From Candidatus Rifleibacteriota bacterium (lineage in GTDB: Bacteria > Muiribacteriota > Ozemobacteria > Ozemobacterales > Ozemobacteraceae), in contig JADFZL010000003.1 of assembly GCA_015232575.1 (NCBI GenBank), forward strand, positions 128,001 through 192,000: a stretch of 64,000 nt of DNA. Direction: 5' to 3'. The position numbers were made by a program, and so were the translations under genes. Below are positions 2,598 to 60,538 of the stretch, in pieces; position 1 is the first letter of the stretch, and each line of letters starts with the position of its first letter. Below the pieces are notes generated by a model that was not told the origin of the DNA, made no database searches, and saw only the letters and a list, made by a program, of their open reading frames with translations.

Positions 2598-5432
2598 ATG
2601 ATGAGATCTCTTTTCACAGGTGTTTCAGGCCTTAAGCAGCACCAGATTCGAATGGATGTGCTTGGAAACAATATAGCAAACGTTAACACACTGGCATTTA
2701 AAAAAGGTCGAGCTTTGTTTCAGGATCTTATGTCACAGACAGTGAGACATTCACAGCAATCAATGGGAAATATCGGTGGAACGAATCCTCAACAGATAGG
2801 ACTTGGAGTAAGGCTTGGCGCAATCGACACCCTCATGGATCAGGGCGCAATTGAAGGAACTGGTAAAAGTACTGACCTTGCTATTGAAGGTAACGGCTTT
2901 TTCGTAATAAAAAACGGATATGGCACCTACTCGTATACCCGTGATGGAAACCTTTCAGTTAACCCGAACTATGATTTAGTTGGAAGTAATACTGGTTTTA
3001 AAATGCAGGGTTGGCTTGCAACTCAGGATCAGGCGACAGGTGAACTCTCAATCAAACAGAATGCTGTAAATCCTTATGATTTGAATCTTACCAAATATCT
3101 GAAAAAAATGGCTCATAAGACCACAAATATCTCTTATGCCTCAAATCTTGACAGCTCTTCTGCTGAACGCGATGTAAAAATGGGCATGGAAAAGTTGGTT
3201 TTCAAAGATACCACCGGGGAATTTCAGAATCTCCAGGTTAAATTCAAAAAAATCGATGCACAGCATTGGGTCTGGAGTGCCACTGACGATACTGAAGGAA
3301 ACGTGGCAAACGGAAGCATTACCACAGATGCCGAAGGCAAAGTTATTGATACAACCGTTGAACCGATGGGTATTGGTGCAACAGTAGGAAAGCCTTACTT
3401 TACTTACGATCCTGATGGAACACCACTTCCGGCAACAGCAACAACTCTCATGAACAGCATGGGAAACACGGGTGATGGTTTTGCATCTGGAATTCAGGTC
3501 GATGGAACTGAGATCAAAGATGAAACAATAAAAGTAGTTTTTGACGGTGGTGATGCTGATCACGCAAATTCGTACCGTGTTGTCGGTTCAGAACGTGGAT
3601 TCATTGGTTCTGGCGTCATAGCCGGATCTCCAGCTAAGGCTGATGGCGTGGGAAACAAGCAGTTGGTTCTTGCAAACTGGACACCGGCAGCAACAGCATT
3701 CGATGTAGTTTTTCAGCGGGAAAGATATTCTGGTGATACTACTCCAGAGAACATTACAGCTACAATTCAATTCAATGCAGGACAACTGGTTGATGGAGTT
3801 GCAGAGACTAACAAATCGTTTACAACTTCAGCAATTATTGACAGAATGAATACTTCTTTAAAAGACAATGGTATACCGGCAACTGCATATTACGACTCTG
3901 TTCTTGGACAAATTTCAATATCAACAAATGCAACCGGAAGTAACCGCACCCTTCAGGTCTTAAATAGATCAGGACAGATTTCTGACCTGGGATTTACCCA
4001 GGATATTACAACTCAGGGAACTGGCATCTCTGCACCTGAGGCATGGGCTGAACTTCCAAATGAATTGAGTTCAAACCCATTTATCAGTTTCAATCCAACG
4101 TTTTCCTTCACAATTACCGACAAAGATGGAAGATCAGCTGCAGTAACATTTGATGCATCTGTTGGCGGCGTTGTTCAGACATACAATAAGAGTGATGTTC
4201 TGTCAAAAATTAATACTGCTCTGAGAAGTAACGATGTCAAGATTTCTGCTGAATTAATTGATTCCAACAATGATACTGAACCAGATCGCCTTGTACTTGT
4301 TGGGACCGACAAAGGTGCCGGAGAAAAAATTATTATATCAGGCGATCAGGCTACATTGCTTGCAAAACTTGGATTCAGGCCTAACACTGCTGCTGGTACA
4401 ACATTCCAGGCATATACCGGAACTCCAGGCGTTGCATCATTCAGTCAGGGCGGAGTTGACTTTACATTAACAGAAGGCAGTATACCCTGGAAGCCAAATG
4501 ATTCAATGGAAATGACCACAACCGCACAGAAGGGACAGGCTGAATCGGTTAACGTTTATGTTCCGACAGTCGATCAGGACACTCTTAATTTCAAAACTAC
4601 TGTTAATACACCACTTGGCCCTGAAACATTCACTATTACTGGTGCTGTCGAAAGAGGGGCAATTCATGACACAAGTATCAGAGTTTTTGATACACTTGGA
4701 AACGATCATGAGCTGGTCACTTCCTGGGAACATACTAATACTGAAACTAAAGAATGGGCTTATAAAATCACCTATTCTGAAGATGATCCCGAAATTACTG
4801 CCTGGCTCAAAGATCCTGCAAATGGTGTTGTTGATCCCGAAGATCCGACTGCAGATGATCTTGAACGTGCAAATGATGCATTGATTACCGAACGAAAAGG
4901 TACAATTTATTTTGGTACAAACGGAAAGATAGATCTTGGAAAATCAAATATTCCTGATATCCAATTTACTCCAAAGGGAAGCGATAAAATAAGTGTTTCT
5001 CTTGATATGGCACTTGCTACCCAGTATAGTTCAGCCTTTACAACCGCTGCCAGAGAGCAGGATGGTTATGAAATGGGAATGCTTGAGTCTGTAAGTTTTG
5101 AATCAGACGGAACAATCAGAGGTATTTATTCAAACGGACAAAAGCATCCAATCGGAAGAGTCGCACTTGCAACCTTTCAGAATTCATCGGGACTTGAAAA
5201 AACCGGAAAAAATCTTTACAATTCCTCTCCCAACTCCGGAACTCCTCTTATTGGTCAGGCGGGCTCTGGCGAACGCGGAACAGTGGTTCCTTCATCTCTC
5301 GAAATGAGCAATGTCGATATCGCGGAAGAATTCACGAACCTTATCATTACCCAGAGAGCATTCCAGGCTAACTCCAGAATTATTACCACATCAGACGAAA
5401 TTCTCCAGGAACTTGTAAACCTGAAACGTTAA
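2598..5432 (+). CDS. flgE: flagellar hook protein FlgE, giant variant (~944 aa)
   Basis: N-term MMRSLFTGVSGLKQHQIRMDVLGNNIANVNT and C-term NVDIAEEFTNLIITQRAFQANSRIITTSDEILQELVNLKR are canonical FlgE/FlgG rod-hook termini; a ~500-aa central insertion; ORF track start 2574, but MMRS at 2598 fits the family. Confidence 0.85.
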   Translation: MMRSLFTGVSGLKQHQIRMDVLGNNIANVNTLAFKKGRALFQDLMSQTVRHSQQSMGNIGGTNPQQIGLGVRLGAIDTLMDQGAIEGTGKSTDLAIEGNGFFVIKNGYGTYSYTRDGNLSVNPNYDLVGSNTGFKMQGWLATQDQATGELSIKQNAVNPYDLNLTKYLKKMAHKTTNISYASNLDSSSAERDVKMGMEKLVFKDTTGEFQNLQVKFKKIDAQHWVWSATDDTEGNVANGSITTDAEGKVIDTTVEPMGIGATVGKPYFTYDPDGTPLPATATTLMNSMGNTGDGFASGIQVDGTEIKDETIKVVFDGGDADHANSYRVVGSERGFIGSGVIAGSPAKADGVGNKQLVLANWTPAATAFDVVFQRERYSGDTTPENITATIQFNAGQLVDGVAETNKSFTTSAIIDRMNTSLKDNGIPATAYYDSVLGQISISTNATGSNRTLQVLNRSGQISDLGFTQDITTQGTGISAPEAWAELPNELSSNPFISFNPTFSFTITDKDGRSAAVTFDASVGGVVQTYNKSDVLSKINTALRSNDVKISAELIDSNNDTEPDRLVLVGTDKGAGEKIIISGDQATLLAKLGFRPNTAAGTTFQAYTGTPGVASFSQGGVDFTLTEGSIPWKPNDSMEMTTTAQKGQAESVNVYVPTVDQDTLNFKTTVNTPLGPETFTITGAVERGAIHDTSIRVFDTLGNDHELVTSWEHTNTETKEWAYKITYSEDDPEITAWLKDPANGVVDPEDPTADDLERANDALITERKGTIYFGTNGKIDLGKSNIPDIQFTPKGSDKISVSLDMALATQYSSAFTTAAREQDGYEMGMLESVSFESDGTIRGIYSNGQKHPIGRVALATFQNSSGLEKTGKNLYNSSPNSGTPLIGQAGSGERGTVVPSSLEMSNVDIAEEFTNLIITQRAFQANSRIITTSDEILQELVNLKR

Positions 5433-5453
5433 TAGTTAATGGTATTTAAATAT

Positions 5454-5483
5454 AGAGCCAGACCATTACTTTGGTCTGGCTCT
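5454..5483 (+). promoter_or_regulatory. stem-loop (11-bp stem AGAGCCAGACC/GGTCTGGCTCT) between flgE and flbD; intra-operon attenuator or mRNA-stabilising hairpin
   Basis: perfect inverted repeat read directly; no T-run after it, so not a strong terminator. Confidence 0.4.
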
Positions 5484-5496
5484 GTGGCATAAAAAA

Positions 5497-5748
5497 ATGA
5501 TAAAAGTTACCAGATATAACGGAAGTCAAGTTTTCATAAACGCGGAATTGATTCAGTCAGTTGAAGCAATTCCAGATTCTCTTATTACTCTGATAAATGG
5601 AAAAACTCTTATGGTAAAGGAAAATCTTAAATCTGTTATCAGAAAGATTATCCGGTACAGAAAAAAAATTGCACACGTACCAGCTTACCCACCTTCGAAA
5701 TCACACATTGATAAGGTCGAAGAGGAGTGCATTCCCGAAAAAAAGTAG
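5497..5748 (+). CDS. flbD: flagellar protein FlbD
   Basis: MIKVTRYNGSQVFINAELIQSVEAIPDSLITLINGKTLMVKENLKSVIRKI matches the FlbD family (MIKLTRLNG..F.LN.DLIE.IE..PDTVITL.NG); follows flgE as in spirochete/Firmicute operons. Confidence 0.7.
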   Translation: MIKVTRYNGSQVFINAELIQSVEAIPDSLITLINGKTLMVKENLKSVIRKIIRYRKKIAHVPAYPPSKSHIDKVEEECIPEKK

Positions 5749-5931
5749 TTATTTGAATGTTCCAACTTTTTTGCTGTCGTGAAGATTTCTCACATTCGTT
5801 CGAGATGACATAGAATAGTCACTGGTGTGGATCAGTTTTTCTCTTTCTTTTTCCATCTCTTTTTTCTCAGAGTCTCCGCGTTTCAGCGTGAGGCTTCTCT
5901 TCTTTTCTTTCTCATCGAATGCCGTTAACAA
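5749..5931 (-). CDS. hypothetical small K/E-rich protein (60 aa), immediately downstream of the response regulator
   Basis: ORF only; highly charged low-complexity sequence; 6-nt gap to the upstream gene. Confidence 0.2.
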   Translation of the reverse strand: MLTAFDEKEKKRSLTLKRGDSEKKEMEKEREKLIHTSDYSMSSRTNVRNLHDSKKVGTFK

Positions 5932-10499: not shown

Positions 10500-10730
10500 C
10501 GGGCATAACAGTGTGTCTGAACGAATTACATTACCGCATTTTGTACAATTAATACTTGTTCGCCACCTTTCTTCACCGGATGTATTAAAACAAGGTCATT
10601 TTTTAATTTAATGGTATAGGAATTTTCATTTTAGTTATGCGTGCTTCCTAAAATCATAATATGAATTCAAACTGTCTTGTAACGATTTCAGATTCATTGT
10701 TTTCCAGGGTGCATTACCGTATTTTATGCT

Positions 10731-10796
10731 GTCATTTCGACCGAAGGTAGAAATCTCGTCTTTTCTATTTGATCTCTCCCTTCGGTCGAGATGACA
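10731..10796. repeat. palindromic intergenic repeat, family 1, copy A (~66 bp imperfect hairpin)
   Basis: gtcatttcgaccgaaggtagaaatctcg...gatctctcccttcggtcgagatgaca; related copies at 33155-33218, 45515-45579 and 57497-57545. Confidence 0.8.
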
Positions 10797-11128: not shown

Positions 11129-11935
11129 TCATTTGACAAAAAGACCCTTGACCCAACTGAAAACTTTTGAAAAAAGACTCTTGTTTATTGCTCTGCAATA
11201 AGCATCATTATATTTTTTATTTACCGGCGCAAGTTTGTTTGCGCGTGAAAAAGATTCTTCGGCGGCAGAATGCAGGTTTAGTCTGTTCTGAATAACACCA
11301 AGCAGATAATATATTTCTGGTAAATCCGATTTTTTTGACAGAGCTTTCTGTAAGACCGGAATTGCTTTCTCGAATAATGGGGTGTTACTGTAACTCTGGG
11401 CAATTTTAAAGAATACCAGCCAGTCGTTTGGCAACAATTCAATTGCTTTCATCATGCAGAATTCGGCATTATTGCCTTTCGTAAGTGCAATAATTTCACC
11501 TCTTGCGATCCATGAAAACCATGAAACATTATCATTTTTCATTGCTCCATCAGAAAAAGCCATGGCATCTTTGAGATTAGCATCTCTTGCTGATGCAAGT
11601 GCCCTTGCTGAAATAATATTCGCGCTTTTTGGAAATAACTTATTTGCTTTTATTGACCAGGTAAGTGCTTCAGGAATTTCTTCAAGATCAAGAAGGCAGA
11701 GAAGCTGTCCAAACCAGGCTTCCTCAATATTTGGATCTATTCCAAGAACTTTTGAATAGTATTTCAAAGCTCTTTCATATTCAAGTTTCCGGTAGTTCTC
11801 ATCTGCAAGACGTAGAACATGCCCGGGATTTGTTAAATCAACTCCGGCCGTTTCAGAATTTCCAGGAAGCTTGTCAAATCCATCTGTTTTCCTGTTTTCC
11901 GGAGAATCAAATTCCAGCCACTTGAATCTGCTCAA
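11129..11935 (-). CDS. TPR-repeat protein
   Basis: multiple TPR-like helical repeats (ALKYYSKVLGIDPNIEEAWFGQ...). Confidence 0.5.
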   Translation of the reverse strand: MSRFKWLEFDSPENRKTDGFDKLPGNSETAGVDLTNPGHVLRLADENYRKLEYERALKYYSKVLGIDPNIEEAWFGQLLCLLDLEEIPEALTWSIKANKLFPKSANIISARALASARDANLKDAMAFSDGAMKNDNVSWFSWIARGEIIALTKGNNAEFCMMKAIELLPNDWLVFFKIAQSYSNTPLFEKAIPVLQKALSKKSDLPEIYYLLGVIQNRLNLHSAAEESFSRANKLAPVNKKYNDAYCRAINKSLFSKVFSWVKGLFVK

Positions 11936-12013
11936 ACTTTTTCACCTGCCATTCGATCTATAACATTCATATCCTGATCAAAAAATCCAAATCCAAAATC
12001 ACAAATCTTTTGA

Positions 12014-12129
12014 CACTGTAGCAACGTTACTGAAGAAAAGATATATCTCACGCAGAGATGCAGAGGCACAGAGAAAAGCAGAGGGAAAATCGTGTTATTT
12101 TTATATCTGCTTAGCAACATTGCTACAAT
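12014..12129. mobile_element. MITE-like element, family 3, copy 1 (terminal inverted repeats CACTGTAGCAACGTTACTGA / TAGCAACATTGCTACA)
   Basis: shares termini and the internal ATATCTCACGCAGAGA core with 59562-59654; no coding capacity. Confidence 0.65.
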
Positions 12130-12210
12130 CTCAATCTCTTATCCCTTATCTTACAATCTTAAATCTTACAATCCAAAATCTTACAATCCAAAATCTCTTA
12201 ATCTTGAAGC
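12130..12210. repeat. short tandem repeat (ATCTTACAATCC, period ~15, 3-4 units)
   Basis: atcttacaatcttaa / atcttacaatccaaa / atcttacaatccaaa read directly. Confidence 0.6.
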
Positions 12211-12270: not shown

Positions 12271-12723
12271 CTATTTCCAGCGGCTTACCGTAAGCCGAAT
12301 TGTTTTATCCTCAGAAACTTCTTCTTTTGTAACCGCAAAGCCTTTTCTTTTCATTTCGGCTGTAATTTTCTGGTAAGCATACTGTTGGGCTATTCCATTG
12401 AGAAGATTCTTTCCGAGGAATTCAAGTTCAGCCTCACTTTTATTTACCCCATTGACCCGCATTTGGCAGTCACCTCTGCCCGTCTTTTCAAATACAACTG
12501 AAAAGCCGTTTCCCTGAAAACAAACACTTTCGCCCTCATCAATTGTGTCTGCCAGAGCGTAATTCGAAGACAATGGAATCTCAGCTTCGCATTCCGAATT
12601 GACCTCAGTCATTTGATCACTGCCGACACGACTCATTCCATAGGCTATTCCGGCGACCGTTGCAGCAGCAACAAAGGCGGGCCAGCCGACTATTACCGGC
12701 ACCATAACTACAAATCCTGACAT
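12271..12723 (-). CDS. DUF1257-like (Ycf35-like) protein with N-terminal TM helix
   Basis: C-terminal LLNGIAQQYAYQKITAEMKRKGFAVTKEEVSEDKTIRLTVSRW resembles the conserved DUF1257 C-terminus (recollection); adjacent to the AAA ATPase. Confidence 0.35.
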   Translation of the reverse strand: MSGFVVMVPVIVGWPAFVAAATVAGIAYGMSRVGSDQMTEVNSECEAEIPLSSNYALADTIDEGESVCFQGNGFSVVFEKTGRGDCQMRVNGVNKSEAELEFLGKNLLNGIAQQYAYQKITAEMKRKGFAVTKEEVSEDKTIRLTVSRWK

Positions 12724-17467: not shown

Positions 17468-17700
17468 GGCAGAGAGCACAAAATGCTCGACTGCAGGGAG
17501 TGATAGAGTTGTCCTATTGTTTATTCATCTGATAGAACTTGAGGGGAGAGCACAAAGTCCTCGACCACGGGGAGTGAGACGGATATACTATTGCTTATAT
17601 GTCCGATAGCACTTCAGCGGAGAGCACAAAGTGCTCGACCGCGGGGAGTGAGACGGTCGAACTTGTTCGACCGGCGAGAGGGGGCGCGTGCCCCCTCTCT
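17468..17700. repeat. family 2 repeat: three tandem 74-nt units, each with a GAGCACAAAGTGCTC hairpin, followed by two perfect GC hairpins (CCGGTCGAACTTGTTCGACCGG; GAGAGGGGGCGCGTGCCCCCTCTC); ends 20 nt before the fmdB start
   Basis: units start at 17470, 17544 and 17618; a second copy (one unit plus hairpins) lies at 40160-40250 upstream of pncB. Confidence 0.8.
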
Positions 17701-17720
17701 AAAAAGCAGGGGGTCAGAAA

Positions 17721-33055: not shown

Positions 33056-33154
33056 AATATATTAACCCTCACCCTTGCCCTTCGCATGCGTTAACTTAAA
33101 GTAGGCAAAATCTTAAATAATGAGACAAACTTTTTATTAACTTTGTGGTAGATT

Positions 33155-33218
33155 GTCATCTCGAGCGAATGTGAGATATCTCAATAATGCGAGCTTTCTT
33201 CCTTCGGTCGAAATGACA
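33155..33218. repeat. palindromic intergenic repeat, family 1, copy B
   Basis: gtcatctcgagcgaatgtgagatatctc...gagctttcttccttcggtcgaaatgaca. Confidence 0.8.
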
Positions 33219-40159: not shown

Positions 40160-40250
40160 TCAAGCAGCGTAGAGCGCAAGGTGCTCGATCGCAGGGAGTA
40201 AGCCGGTCGAACTTGTTCGACCGGCGAGAGGGGGTGCGTGCCCTCTCTCC
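40160..40250. repeat. family 2 repeat, copy 2 (one unit plus two GC hairpins), ending 20 nt before the pncB start
   Basis: agagcgcaaggtgctcgatcgcagggagtaagccggtcgaacttgttcgaccggcgagagggggtgcgtgccctctctc; cf. 17618-17700. Confidence 0.8.
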
Positions 40251-40270
40251 AAAAAATCAGGAGCTGAAAT

Positions 40271-45333: not shown

Positions 45334-45514
45334 ATTTTGTTAAAGCCAAGCTTATATCGTATAATCGTATCTACTCAATTTTTACTCAATATTGTATTAG
45401 AAATCTCTTTTTTTGTCCAATGCAAAAACTTTTTTTTATCGTCAATGCCAATGAGCTTAGTACGCAAAACCTTATATAAGGGGGCATATTTGCGTGTTAA
45501 CTATTATGTGAGCT

Positions 45515-45579
45515 GTCATCTCGAACGAATGTGAGAGATCTCCGCAAGTGCGAGATTTCTCCCTTCGGTCGAAATGACA
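45515..45579. repeat. palindromic intergenic repeat, family 1, copy C
   Basis: gtcatctcgaacgaatgtgagagatctc...gagatttctcccttcggtcgaaatgaca. Confidence 0.8.
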
Positions 45580-45624
45580 CATATAAATGACCCCTTAATT
45601 AAGATTTACTGTACACAGATCGAA

Positions 45625-57430: not shown

Positions 57431-57496
57431 GTTACTTTCTCCTGATATATTTTCGGGTTTGAGCTGGTCGTGATATGTTCAATGTATTGATTCATG

Positions 57497-57545
57497 TTAT
57501 TTCGACCGAAGGGAGAAATCTGGCATTTTCTACGTCGAGATGACA
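57497..57545. repeat. palindromic intergenic repeat, family 1, copy D (internally deleted) between pyrE and pyrF
   Basis: gttatttcgaccgaagggagaaatctgg...gtcgagatgaca; closest to copy A. Confidence 0.7.
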
Positions 57546-57589: not shown

Positions 57590-58195
57590 TTAATTGTTAA
57601 TAAACCGTCTGATGATTTCAGATCTTGGATCAGACTTTGATTCAAGATATTCAATTATTGAATGAACGGTTATCAGAGACTTGTACTCAAAATTAATCTT
57701 AGTATTTCTGGCGGTGCGGTCAACTATGACAAGATTTCTGATCTTTGTACAACCAAAAGTTTTATTCAGGTGATTAATCGCTTCTTCTTTTGTTTTTCCG
57801 TTTGTCATTACATCGTCTATTATGACTATTTCATCGTTTTTTGTGGGAAGTTTTCCGATGTAATTTCCGCCTTCACCGTGATCTTTTGATTCTTTGCGGT
57901 CATACAGAACTGGAATGTCTTTCTGAAAAAGGTTCCAGAGTGAGATTGATGCAGATGTGGCAAGAGTTATTCCTTTATAGGCGGGTCCGAATAAAATTGT
58001 TGCATCGGGAAAAAAGTCTAATAAAGCATTTGCAAGAAAGTTTCCCATTGTGGAAGATTCCTTACCGGTTTTAATCTGTCCAAGGTCAATAAAAAAAGGG
58101 GAGGAAACACCAGATTTCAGTGTAAACTCCCCAAATTTTAGAGCGCCAGAATCAATCAGCAGTTGTACAACTTCACAGGGATTGACAGTTTTCAT
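57590..58195 (-). CDS. pyrE: orotate phosphoribosyltransferase
   Basis: FGEFTLKSGVSSPFFIDL; PRPP motif VIIDDVMTNGKT. Confidence 0.85.
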   Translation of the reverse strand: MKTVNPCEVVQLLIDSGALKFGEFTLKSGVSSPFFIDLGQIKTGKESSTMGNFLANALLDFFPDATILFGPAYKGITLATSASISLWNLFQKDIPVLYDRKESKDHGEGGNYIGKLPTKNDEIVIIDDVMTNGKTKEEAINHLNKTFGCTKIRNLVIVDRTARNTKINFEYKSLITVHSIIEYLESKSDPRSEIIRRFINN

Positions 58196-59465
58196 AAACC
58201 TCCTTTGAATTGTTGAAATTCAGCCATTTTTCTTTACATAACGAGACTGTTCCGTTTACGATTGCAGTATCAACCTTCCATGGAAACGAAAATTTCTGCC
58301 ATGGGTTATAGCCAGCTTTTGTAACAATAGTTGCGGATTTATCGCCAGGAATGGTTTTCTTGTACAAGACAAGATCAGCAAAATTTCCGATTTTTATACC
58401 ATCGCGATCTTTTATTGAATAATGCTTTGCAGAATTGCTGCATGCAAGTTCAATTAATTTTGATATTCCGATTAATTTTTCTTCGTAAAGCTTTAAAAGA
58501 AGCGATCCGAAAGATTCTATTCCCGGAACTCCGGAAGGTGGGGCAGGGGACTGTTTTTCTTCGGGTGAATGCGGTGCATGGTCGCTTCCTATGAATTGAA
58601 TGCTTCCATCATTGATTGCAGCAAGTAAAGCCAGGCGGTCTGTTTCTTCTCTGATTGGCGGATTCACCTGAAGCATTCCAAAAGATTTCATAACATCATC
58701 TTGTGTAAAGAATAAATAATGGGGCGCAGTTTCAGCAGCAACTGACACGCCTTTCTTTCTCATTTTGCTTAACCAGTCAAGTTCTTCAATGGTCGAAACA
58801 TGCAGAAGAATGATTTCAGGAAGGGGTGATGACGGATTTTTTTCTGAAAAGATTTTTAGTGCATGTTCAATTCTTGAAAGTCCGGAAAGAATTGCTGTTC
58901 GCGGACGTTTTTCGTGGTGGGGGCAATTTTCCTGTGATAAAAAATAATCTTCATCTTCAACATGAAAAGTGAAGCGATTGTAGTTTTCAAAAAGTTCTGC
59001 AAGTTCGTTTGCTGACTTAACGACCTTTGAGCCGCCTGCTGCAGAGAAGAAAATCTTTATTGAAGCATACTTGGCGTTTTTATAATTTCCGGGAAGAACG
59101 TGCAATCCCCAGTTTACCAGTGAGTATTTCTGAAAAAGTTTGTTTTTAATACAGAAAACCTCCCCGTTATTGCAGGGAGGTTTATTATTCGGCATATCCA
59201 GAACGGTAGTAACACCACCGTATAAAGCGGCCCGCGAGCCGTTTTTAATTCCTTCTTTGTAAAACTGACCCGGTTGTCGGAAATGAACATGCGGGTCAAT
59301 GCACCCAGGCATTAGAAGCTTGTCAGAAGCATCAATAGTTGAGGAAAACTGCCAGGAATTATTGACTTCTGGCGAAATGTCAGCGATTCTGCAATTTTTT
59401 ACGAGAATATTCCCGCGAAGAACTGAGTTTGATATATCTAACCAGCTTGCATTCTTAATCAACAT
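58173..59465 (-). CDS. pyrC: dihydroorotase (amidohydrolase family)
   Basis: MPGCIDPHVHFRQPG metal-binding HxH; heads the pyr operon. Confidence 0.7.
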   Translation of the reverse strand: MLIKNASWLDISNSVLRGNILVKNCRIADISPEVNNSWQFSSTIDASDKLLMPGCIDPHVHFRQPGQFYKEGIKNGSRAALYGGVTTVLDMPNNKPPCNNGEVFCIKNKLFQKYSLVNWGLHVLPGNYKNAKYASIKIFFSAAGGSKVVKSANELAELFENYNRFTFHVEDEDYFLSQENCPHHEKRPRTAILSGLSRIEHALKIFSEKNPSSPLPEIILLHVSTIEELDWLSKMRKKGVSVAAETAPHYLFFTQDDVMKSFGMLQVNPPIREETDRLALLAAINDGSIQFIGSDHAPHSPEEKQSPAPPSGVPGIESFGSLLLKLYEEKLIGISKLIELACSNSAKHYSIKDRDGIKIGNFADLVLYKKTIPGDKSATIVTKAGYNPWQKFSFPWKVDTAIVNGTVSLCKEKWLNFNNSKEVYENCQSL

Positions 59466-59561
59466 TCATTTGAATCCTGAAAATCAATTACCTCAAAATT
59501 GCCGATAATTATAACATCCAATGATATTTAATGCAACGTTTTTCAGCCAGTAAAAAAAGGG

Positions 59562-59654
59562 CACTGTAGCAATGTTGCTGAAAAATGAATATATCTCACG
59601 CAGAGACGCTCGTATTTTTTTTAATTGTATCTGCTCAGCAACATTGCTACAGTG
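59562..59654. mobile_element. MITE-like element, family 3, copy 2 (20-bp perfect terminal inverted repeats CACTGTAGCAATGTTGCTGA / TCAGCAACATTGCTACAGTG)
   Basis: read directly; internal AATATATCTCACGCAGAGACGCTCG core shared with 12014-12129. Confidence 0.7.
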
Positions 59655-59974
59655 TCAAAAAAAGTGTTTTAATTTCATATTTTTTAATTGCCATCTTTCT
59701 CAGGCTGAGTATTTATGATTTTGCCGGCAATTACCCATCAGAATTCTTTGAAATATGCATTAATAGAATATTGTTCTTAAAAAACATTTGCGAAAATCAT
59801 TATCTGAAAACCATTTATTTATAATGGTCTTGAGACTATTGGATAATTGTGGTGGTTTTGTCTGCGTAAGTTTCTGACGCTGGTAATTTTCTATTCTGAA
59901 TGTTATTCTTCAGTAAGAACTTTCAAGGATAATATGAATATTTATAAAAGGAACTTGAAGTTAAAGGGCGATAA

Positions 59975-60538
59975 ATGATGGACTTATTTGTTCGGATTCT
60001 GATCACAATCGTTTTGTTTTTTTCTTCTGTGTTGATTCTGGAACCTCTCATTTATAGTGGTATGAGTACTCCACAGGGAAAAAATACTGATACAAAAGCT
60101 GTAATGAGTAATTTGAAGTGCGCGTTAATAAACTTCAAGCATGATCTGGGGCGGTATCCATTTGATGGGGAATCGTTGACTGAGATTGGAGTAAATGCTG
60201 CAAATGATGTTTTTCTTGGGTTGAAACCAAATGAGAACATTCTGATCACTTTGAAGCAATTTCAAAAAATAGACCGCAATCAAATTATGGGGCTTGATTT
60301 TGATAGATTCGTAAAACTCTGGAAAGGACCTTACCTTGACTTTCCTTATGATGATTTGATGTTAGATGCTTGGGGCACAAAAATTCGGTATTGCTGTTTT
60401 GCCAACACTCTTTGTTTGCATTCCGCCGGGGCAGATAAAACATTCGATCTCATTGTGAAAGTATTTTCTTCAAATTACGAGGGAGACGATATTTTGCTGA
60501 AAATTGACAAGTTTACTATCCCAAACTCAGATCAATAG
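59975..60538 (+). CDS. GspG/PulG-like pseudopilin globular domain protein lacking a prepilin leader
   Basis: KAVMSNLKCALINFKHDLGRYPF and WKGPYLDFPYDDLMLDAWGTKIRY...SAGADKTF align to the GspG core; the N-terminus MMDLFVRILITIVLFF has no G|FTLxE motif and an in-frame TAA lies directly upstream. Confidence 0.5.
   Translation: MMDLFVRILITIVLFFSSVLILEPLIYSGMSTPQGKNTDTKAVMSNLKCALINFKHDLGRYPFDGESLTEIGVNAANDVFLGLKPNENILITLKQFQKIDRNQIMGLDFDRFVKLWKGPYLDFPYDDLMLDAWGTKIRYCCFANTLCLHSAGADKTFDLIVKVFSSNYEGDDILLKIDKFTIPNSDQ

Follow-up and report, generated by a model that had tools for sequence, protein, structure and literature searches.

Two short intergenic elements in a Riflebacteria genome are very probably MITEs derived from a 1.5-kb IS with a DDE transposase

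The intergenic region between two divergent genes, 58173-59465 on the minus strand and 59975-60538 on the plus strand, contains a short element with inverted-repeat ends, referred to here as copy A, which occupies positions 59560-59656 of the window, the term used for the whole 64-kb stretch of DNA that was analysed. The minus-strand gene encodes a dihydroorotase-like protein, the next relatives of which are only about 53% identical, and the other gene encodes a protein of 187 aa. Copy A is upstream of both, at a distance of 95 nt from the start of the dihydroorotase-like gene and 320 nt from that of its neighbour. The first-pass annotation had placed perfect 20-bp terminal inverted repeats (TIRs) at 59562-59654, and this description is exact, with the 20-nt arm CACTGTAGCAATGTTGCTGA standing at 59562-59581 on the plus strand and its exact reverse complement at 59635-59654. 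The borders of the element were taken from comparison with the ends of full-length IS relatives and extend 2 nt beyond these 20-bp arms at either end, giving an element of 97 nt (GGCACTGTAGC...GCTACAGTGTC) with the terminal sequences GGCACTG...CAGTGTC. Its left TIR (59560-59581, plus strand) reads GGCACTGTAGCAATGTTGCTGA and its right TIR (59635-59656) reads GACACTGTAGCAATGTTGCTGA on the minus strand, the two being complementary at 21 of 22 positions, of which the inner 20 are perfect. The same 8-mer, AAAAAAAG, abuts both ends of the element as a target-site duplication, at 59552-59559 on the left and at 59657-59664 on the right.

A second copy, copy B, is also intergenic and is found between two minus-strand genes, 11129-11935 and 12271-12723. 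It had previously been placed at 12014-12129 and described as having the same termini and core as copy A. The copy is real, with arms at 12014-12033 and 12111-12130 that match CACTGTAGCAATGTTGCTGA with 2 and 3 mismatches, respectively, but its borders are 12012-12132, corresponding to 121 nt (GACACTGTAGC...GCTACAATCTC) with the terminal sequences GACACTG...CAATCTC. Similarly, a 16-nt core, ATATCTCACGCAGAGA, is identical in A and B and is found at no other position of the window, but the termini differ, since the arms of copy B have diverged and agree with each other at only 18 of the 26 nt compared (17 of the 22 arm positions). The left TIR, at 12012-12033 on the plus strand, reads GACACTGTAGCAACGTTACTGA and the right TIR, at 12111-12132, reads GAGATTGTAGCAATGTTGCTAA on the minus strand. 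The flanking target-site duplication consists of AATCTTTT at 12004-12011 and AATCTCTT at 12133-12140, which agree at 7 of 8 positions. Abutting copy B on the right, at 12141-12200, is a tandem repeat of about four 15-nt units resembling ATCTTACAATCCAAA.

When the two copies are aligned they are 86% identical over 93 aligned positions and the likeness stops at the element ends, such that the interior and the junctions are common to both and the flanks are not. A 35-nt insertion had been proposed for copy B, in place of which the alignment gives a 28-nt insertion (12062-12089), rich in GCAGAG and present in copy B only, together with a 4-nt deletion, a net difference of +24 nt. The arms themselves are matched four times in the window with up to 3 mismatches, against an expectation of 0.02 from shuffled sequence, and none of 100 shuffles reached four. 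Target-site duplications had been suggested as something to look for at each copy, and they are found directly outside the IS-defined ends, at 8 of 8 positions for copy A and 7 of 8 for copy B. Among window 8-mers at the same spacing a full 8/8 agreement arises at a frequency of 2e-4 and agreement at 7 or more positions at 1.6e-3; when only AT-rich 8-mers are considered, in this window of about 39% GC, the corresponding frequencies are 1.4e-3 and 5-7e-3. With its perfect arms and perfect duplication copy A looks recent, whereas copy B looks older, its arms differing at five positions, its duplication being imperfect and indels being present.

A length below 600 bp, with neither a transposase nor other conserved coding capacity, is one of the marks of a MITE. 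That the elements are non-coding, as had been claimed for both, is borne out by their lengths of 97 and 121 nt and by the peptides from their open frames, for which a search of 5.8 billion proteins, meant to reveal copies miscalled as genes, gave nothing at E<=1. Two predicted open reading frames start inside the elements, one of 79 aa (59585-59824, plus strand) in copy A and one of 62 aa (11932-12120, minus strand) in copy B. Both are without homologues and, overlapping the MITEs as they do, are probably not genes.

Where else are such ends to be found? When the 19-nt arm ACTGTAGCAAyGTTrCTGA was scanned against 185,579 species genomes, four loci emerged. At one of these, L005, two arm matches, inverted with respect to each other, enclose a transposase gene at a spacing of 1.5 kb, and the region 4190-5702 represents an IS of 1,513 bp with 24-bp ends, GCGACTGTAGCAACGTTACTGAGT and GAGACTGTAGCAACGTTACTGAGT, that encodes a DDE transposase, split by one frameshift and 463 aa in length when joined. 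A longer element with matching TIRs and a transposase gene, which had been anticipated within the same genome, thus exists, although in a different, GC-richer organism, the L005 stretch having 54% GC. Between the window arms and the ends of L005, 18-21 of 24 positions agree, among them an uninterrupted stretch of 19 nt. This stretch belongs to the left arm of copy B, where 19 consecutive nt are identical to both L005 ends and where overall agreement is 20/24 with the left end and 21/24 with the right; for the right arm of copy A the values are 19/24 and 20/24, respectively. By comparison, the ends of the nearest protein relatives of L005, L023 and L024, agree with those of L005 at 19/24, so that the window arms are equally close. 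Since the inner half of the terminal repeat is variable across the transposase family, the 19-nt match between the left arm of copy B and L005 is specific.

A further locus, L004, belongs to a Planctomycetota MAG; its two arms are separated by about 200 bp and delimit a 206-bp MITE with the same ends. A metagenome scan adds two more MITEs, L009, which is the same insertion as L004, and L010, of 232 bp, the right arm of which agrees with the right arm of copy A at 22/24. These other MITEs with the same ends come from Planctomycetota-like DNA of 62-65% GC. The remaining genome loci, L002 and L003, are single-arm matches in coding-looking sequence and were attributed to chance, as were two single arms in low-GC metagenome sequence (L011 and L018), which lie inside open reading frames, the other metagenome single-arm matches, which have no partner arm, and the one single match from a scan of viral contigs, again with no partner arm. 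The viral contigs gave 0 matches to the core. No further copies of the window's own subtype were found in the genome or metagenome scan, the collections for which do not include the source MAG, and a tblastn search of the 64-kb window detected no transposase homologue of the L005 family. Between the 53-nt interior of the window MITE and the subterminal parts of L005 no similarity was seen beyond about 5 nt beside the right arm. A literature search for the arm sequence returned unrelated primers only.

The window has other repeats as well. A second dispersed family, TGTCAT(T/C)TCGA(C/G)CGAAxGxGAxAxxTC, is present on both strands at 5783-5810, 10730-10796, 33137-33218, 45497-45588 and 57484-57532, and includes a close inverted pair, 10730-10755 and 10771-10796; a motif resembling this repeat, TGTCATTCTGAG...CGAAGAATC, is found inside the L004 MITE. 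There is also a GC-rich 91-nt repeat, unusual at 39% GC, whose two copies (17472-17705 region and 40165-40255) are 89% identical. Just before the first of these are two tandem units of 74 nt, the second of which overlaps the copy by 5 nt.

How, then, did the same short sequence come to lie at two places in this genome? Copies A and B are very probably MITEs, that is internally deleted, non-coding derivatives of an IS of about 1.5 kb with GAGACTGTAGCAACGTTACTGAGT ends and a 463-aa DDE transposase. The IS-type ends, the 8-bp duplications and the common interior support the view, already taken in the first-pass annotation, that they are non-autonomous transposon derivatives. The same interior and the same junctions recur at two sites that are unrelated to each other and have separate duplications, from which it follows that the short form itself moved. 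Two independent IS remnants, each having lost its interior in place without the short form ever having been mobile, would be consistent with there being only two known copies and no full-length partner in the 64-kb window. Such an origin is nonetheless very improbable, as A and B keep the same internal 50-odd nt and the same arm junctions at 86% identity, which independent deletions would not give, and the 8-bp duplication of each copy is its own and different from that of the other.

For A and B as mobile MITEs, a full-length copy elsewhere would supply the transposase, a protein with an N-terminal zinc-finger/DNA-binding part and a C-terminal DDE catalytic part. The transposase would bind the terminal repeats of the short element, of about 22-24 bp, and insertion would take place at a staggered 8-bp cut, the repair of which would generate the 8-bp direct duplication. 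The 8-bp duplication is a property of the transposase family. Mobilisation in trans and the transposition chemistry are proposed on the basis of sequence comparison, which would also imply that a cognate transposase is, or formerly was, present in this Riflebacteria lineage.

The arms also give copy A a very stable predicted fold (-42.1 kcal/mol, z = -7.7), and the arm contains both a GTAG and the near-palindrome AGCAAyGTTrCT. When the minus strand is read, CCCTTTTTTT comes after the copy A hairpin. These features would suit a REP/BIME-like palindrome, spread by a RAYT (a tyrosine, IS200/IS605-like enzyme) acting on single-stranded hairpins, or an intergenic hairpin with a host function in transcript stabilisation or termination. 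Either is highly unlikely. The strength of the fold arises because the element has inverted repeats; REP elements are 20-40 nt in length and lack a target duplication, whereas A and B are 97-121 nt in length and have 8-bp duplications; and the same ends bound the DDE-transposase element of L005. With respect to termination, the T-run beside copy A is its target duplication, no gene ends upstream on that strand and a terminator scan returned nothing at either element. The idea of a structured small RNA gene or a cis-regulatory RNA, such as a pyrimidine-operon leader by copy A, is the least credible. It draws on the strong predicted fold, on the position of copy A 95 nt upstream of the dihydroorotase-like gene start and on the four transitions found between the two arms of copy B, three of which would give G-U pairs on the minus strand, but three of four on one strand is not significant. 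Rfam has no match in the window at gathering thresholds and only hairpin-like matches of 13-23 bits against cut-offs of 70-100 in a relaxed search of both elements, the genes beside A and B are unrelated, and in two relatives that retain the pyrimidine gene cluster the element is missing both in front of pyrC and from anywhere within 10 kb.

The same count of transitions was the reason for discarding selection on RNA pairing in copy B. A promoter directed outward from the right arm was also dropped, being predicted for copy B and not conserved in copy A. An empty site was sought in the nearest relatives, of about 53% protein identity, in which the upstream neighbour is not conserved, so that these do not provide a true empty site.

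The family to which the parent transposase of the MITEs belongs is a large one. At least 7,961 proteins in metagenomes are homologous to the joined L005 protein, and the majority are 463 aa long. The DNA of five homologues (L006, L007, L008, L023 and L024) places each in an element of 1,513-1,524 bp, those of L006, L007 and L008 being 1,515-1,524 bp, with inverted repeats of 22-26 bp that start GAG(A/T)CTnTAGCA. The other members of the transposase family are elements of 1.51-1.52 kb with GAGACTnTAGCA ends and 8-bp duplications. The 8-mers directly outside the ends are identical in L007 (ATTCTATC) and L008 (CGTAAGCG) and agree at 7/8 in L006 and 6/8 in L005; in L023 and L024, which are short metagenome contigs, the outer 8-mers are unrelated and no duplication is seen.

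To which of the established IS families could such a transposase be assigned? The NCBIfam ISL3 model gives 27-59 bits against a cut-off of 180, so the proteins fall outside the family as that model defines it, even though for the intact members this is the best near-full-length match to any model, at 55-59 bits over profile positions 2-319 of 370. The intact members score 32-50 bits with the IS256 model (cut-off 150) and 32-55 bits with the IS66 model (cut-off 180), and the Pfam profile DDE_Tnp_ISL3 (PF01610) is borderline at 21-26 bits against a cut-off of 23. The ISL3, IS256 and IS66 scores are therefore weak, nearly equal and all under the cut-offs of those models, as a consequence of which the parent family is, on profile comparison, an unclassified DDE clade near ISL3/IS256/IS66. 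The names given to the family proteins in their source records say nothing beyond 'transposase'. No match to the transposase was found in 72,556 plasmid records, and no relative with a solved structure was found by sequence.

In three of the elements, which form one subclade, the transposase is split into open reading frames of 155 aa and about 303 aa, at 4714-4727 in L005, about 730-745 in L023 and about 1680-1695 in L024. The site of the split is a G5-6A5-6 run, always 11 nt in length, at which a +1 shift is needed to give the 463-aa protein. Two of these three sequences are from short-read assemblies. Many database entries of 303 aa have the same split, and intact members of the family have the run at the same place. 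Rather than being an error, the split at the G/A run may reflect programmed frameshifting or slippage during transcription. A different pattern is seen in L006 and L007 (P0104 and P0117), which are called as 463-aa transposases and have out-of-frame internal stretches between two compensating shifts, suggesting either indel errors of long-read assembly or decaying copies.

The occurrence of near-identical 24-bp ends in a Riflebacteria MAG of 39% GC and in Planctomycetota-like DNA of 62-65% GC is such that spread between phyla would follow. In its widest form, and put forward only tentatively, the proposal would be of a very abundant, uncatalogued DDE IS clade, with GAGACTGTAGCA ends and scores under every NCBIfam IS cut-off that was tried, which has spread between phyla and in which the +1 shift of L005, L023 and L024 could be a recoding site governing how much 155-aa DNA-binding protein is made relative to transposase.

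For this genome the result explains two intergenic hairpins as insertions and otherwise matters little. It does provide a caution against reading such hairpins as regulatory RNAs, or against calling the short open reading frames that start inside them, such as 59585-59824, and it links a short repeat, from a candidate phylum that has been sampled poorly, with a defined transposase clade. The combination of GAGACTGTAGCA ends, an 8-bp duplication, a length of about 1.51 kb and a 463-aa protein represents a handle for annotating the clade and its MITEs in metagenomes, and the element ends could serve to mark horizontal exchange among bacteria that differ greatly. The MITE subtype, the host phylum for it and the parent clade all appear to be uncatalogued. 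As a kind of mobile DNA MITEs are already well known, and the two described here are an ordinary example.

In this respect A and B are like the established bacterial MITEs, including the Correia elements of Neisseria, the pneumococcal RUP and the Microcystis MaeMITEs, which are about 100-230 bp in length, non-coding, intergenic and with strong hairpin potential, and which have both a target-site duplication and TIRs in common with a full-length IS. They differ from those MITEs in their ends, GAsACTGTAGCAAyGTTrCTGA, in the 8-bp duplication, in the parent transposase clade and in their uncultured Riflebacteria host. The survey that lists the Microcystis MaeMITEs as bacterial MITEs sought only families of more than 20 copies (PMC2779907), as compared with the two copies seen here in 64 kb. 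With REP and BIME sequences the elements share the form of short intergenic palindromic repeats, although REPs have no target duplication and are linked to a tyrosine transposase, whereas A and B have 8-bp duplications and a DDE-transposase relative. With regard to the parent element, the ISL3 family consists of single-gene IS of about 1.3-1.5 kb that encode a protein with an N-terminal zinc finger and a DDE domain, and that have inverted repeats of about 24 bp, with ends of the GGCTCTT type, and an 8-bp duplication. The parent clade resembles ISL3 in its length of 1,513-1,524 bp, its inverted repeats of about 24 bp, its single gene for a transposase in which a zinc-finger region at the N-terminus accompanies a DDE domain, and its 8-bp duplication. 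It departs from ISL3 in scoring far under the 180-bit NCBIfam cut-off, with the IS256 and IS66 models scoring about equally, and in having ends that start GAGACTGTAGCA, unlike the GGCTCTT-type ends of ISL3.
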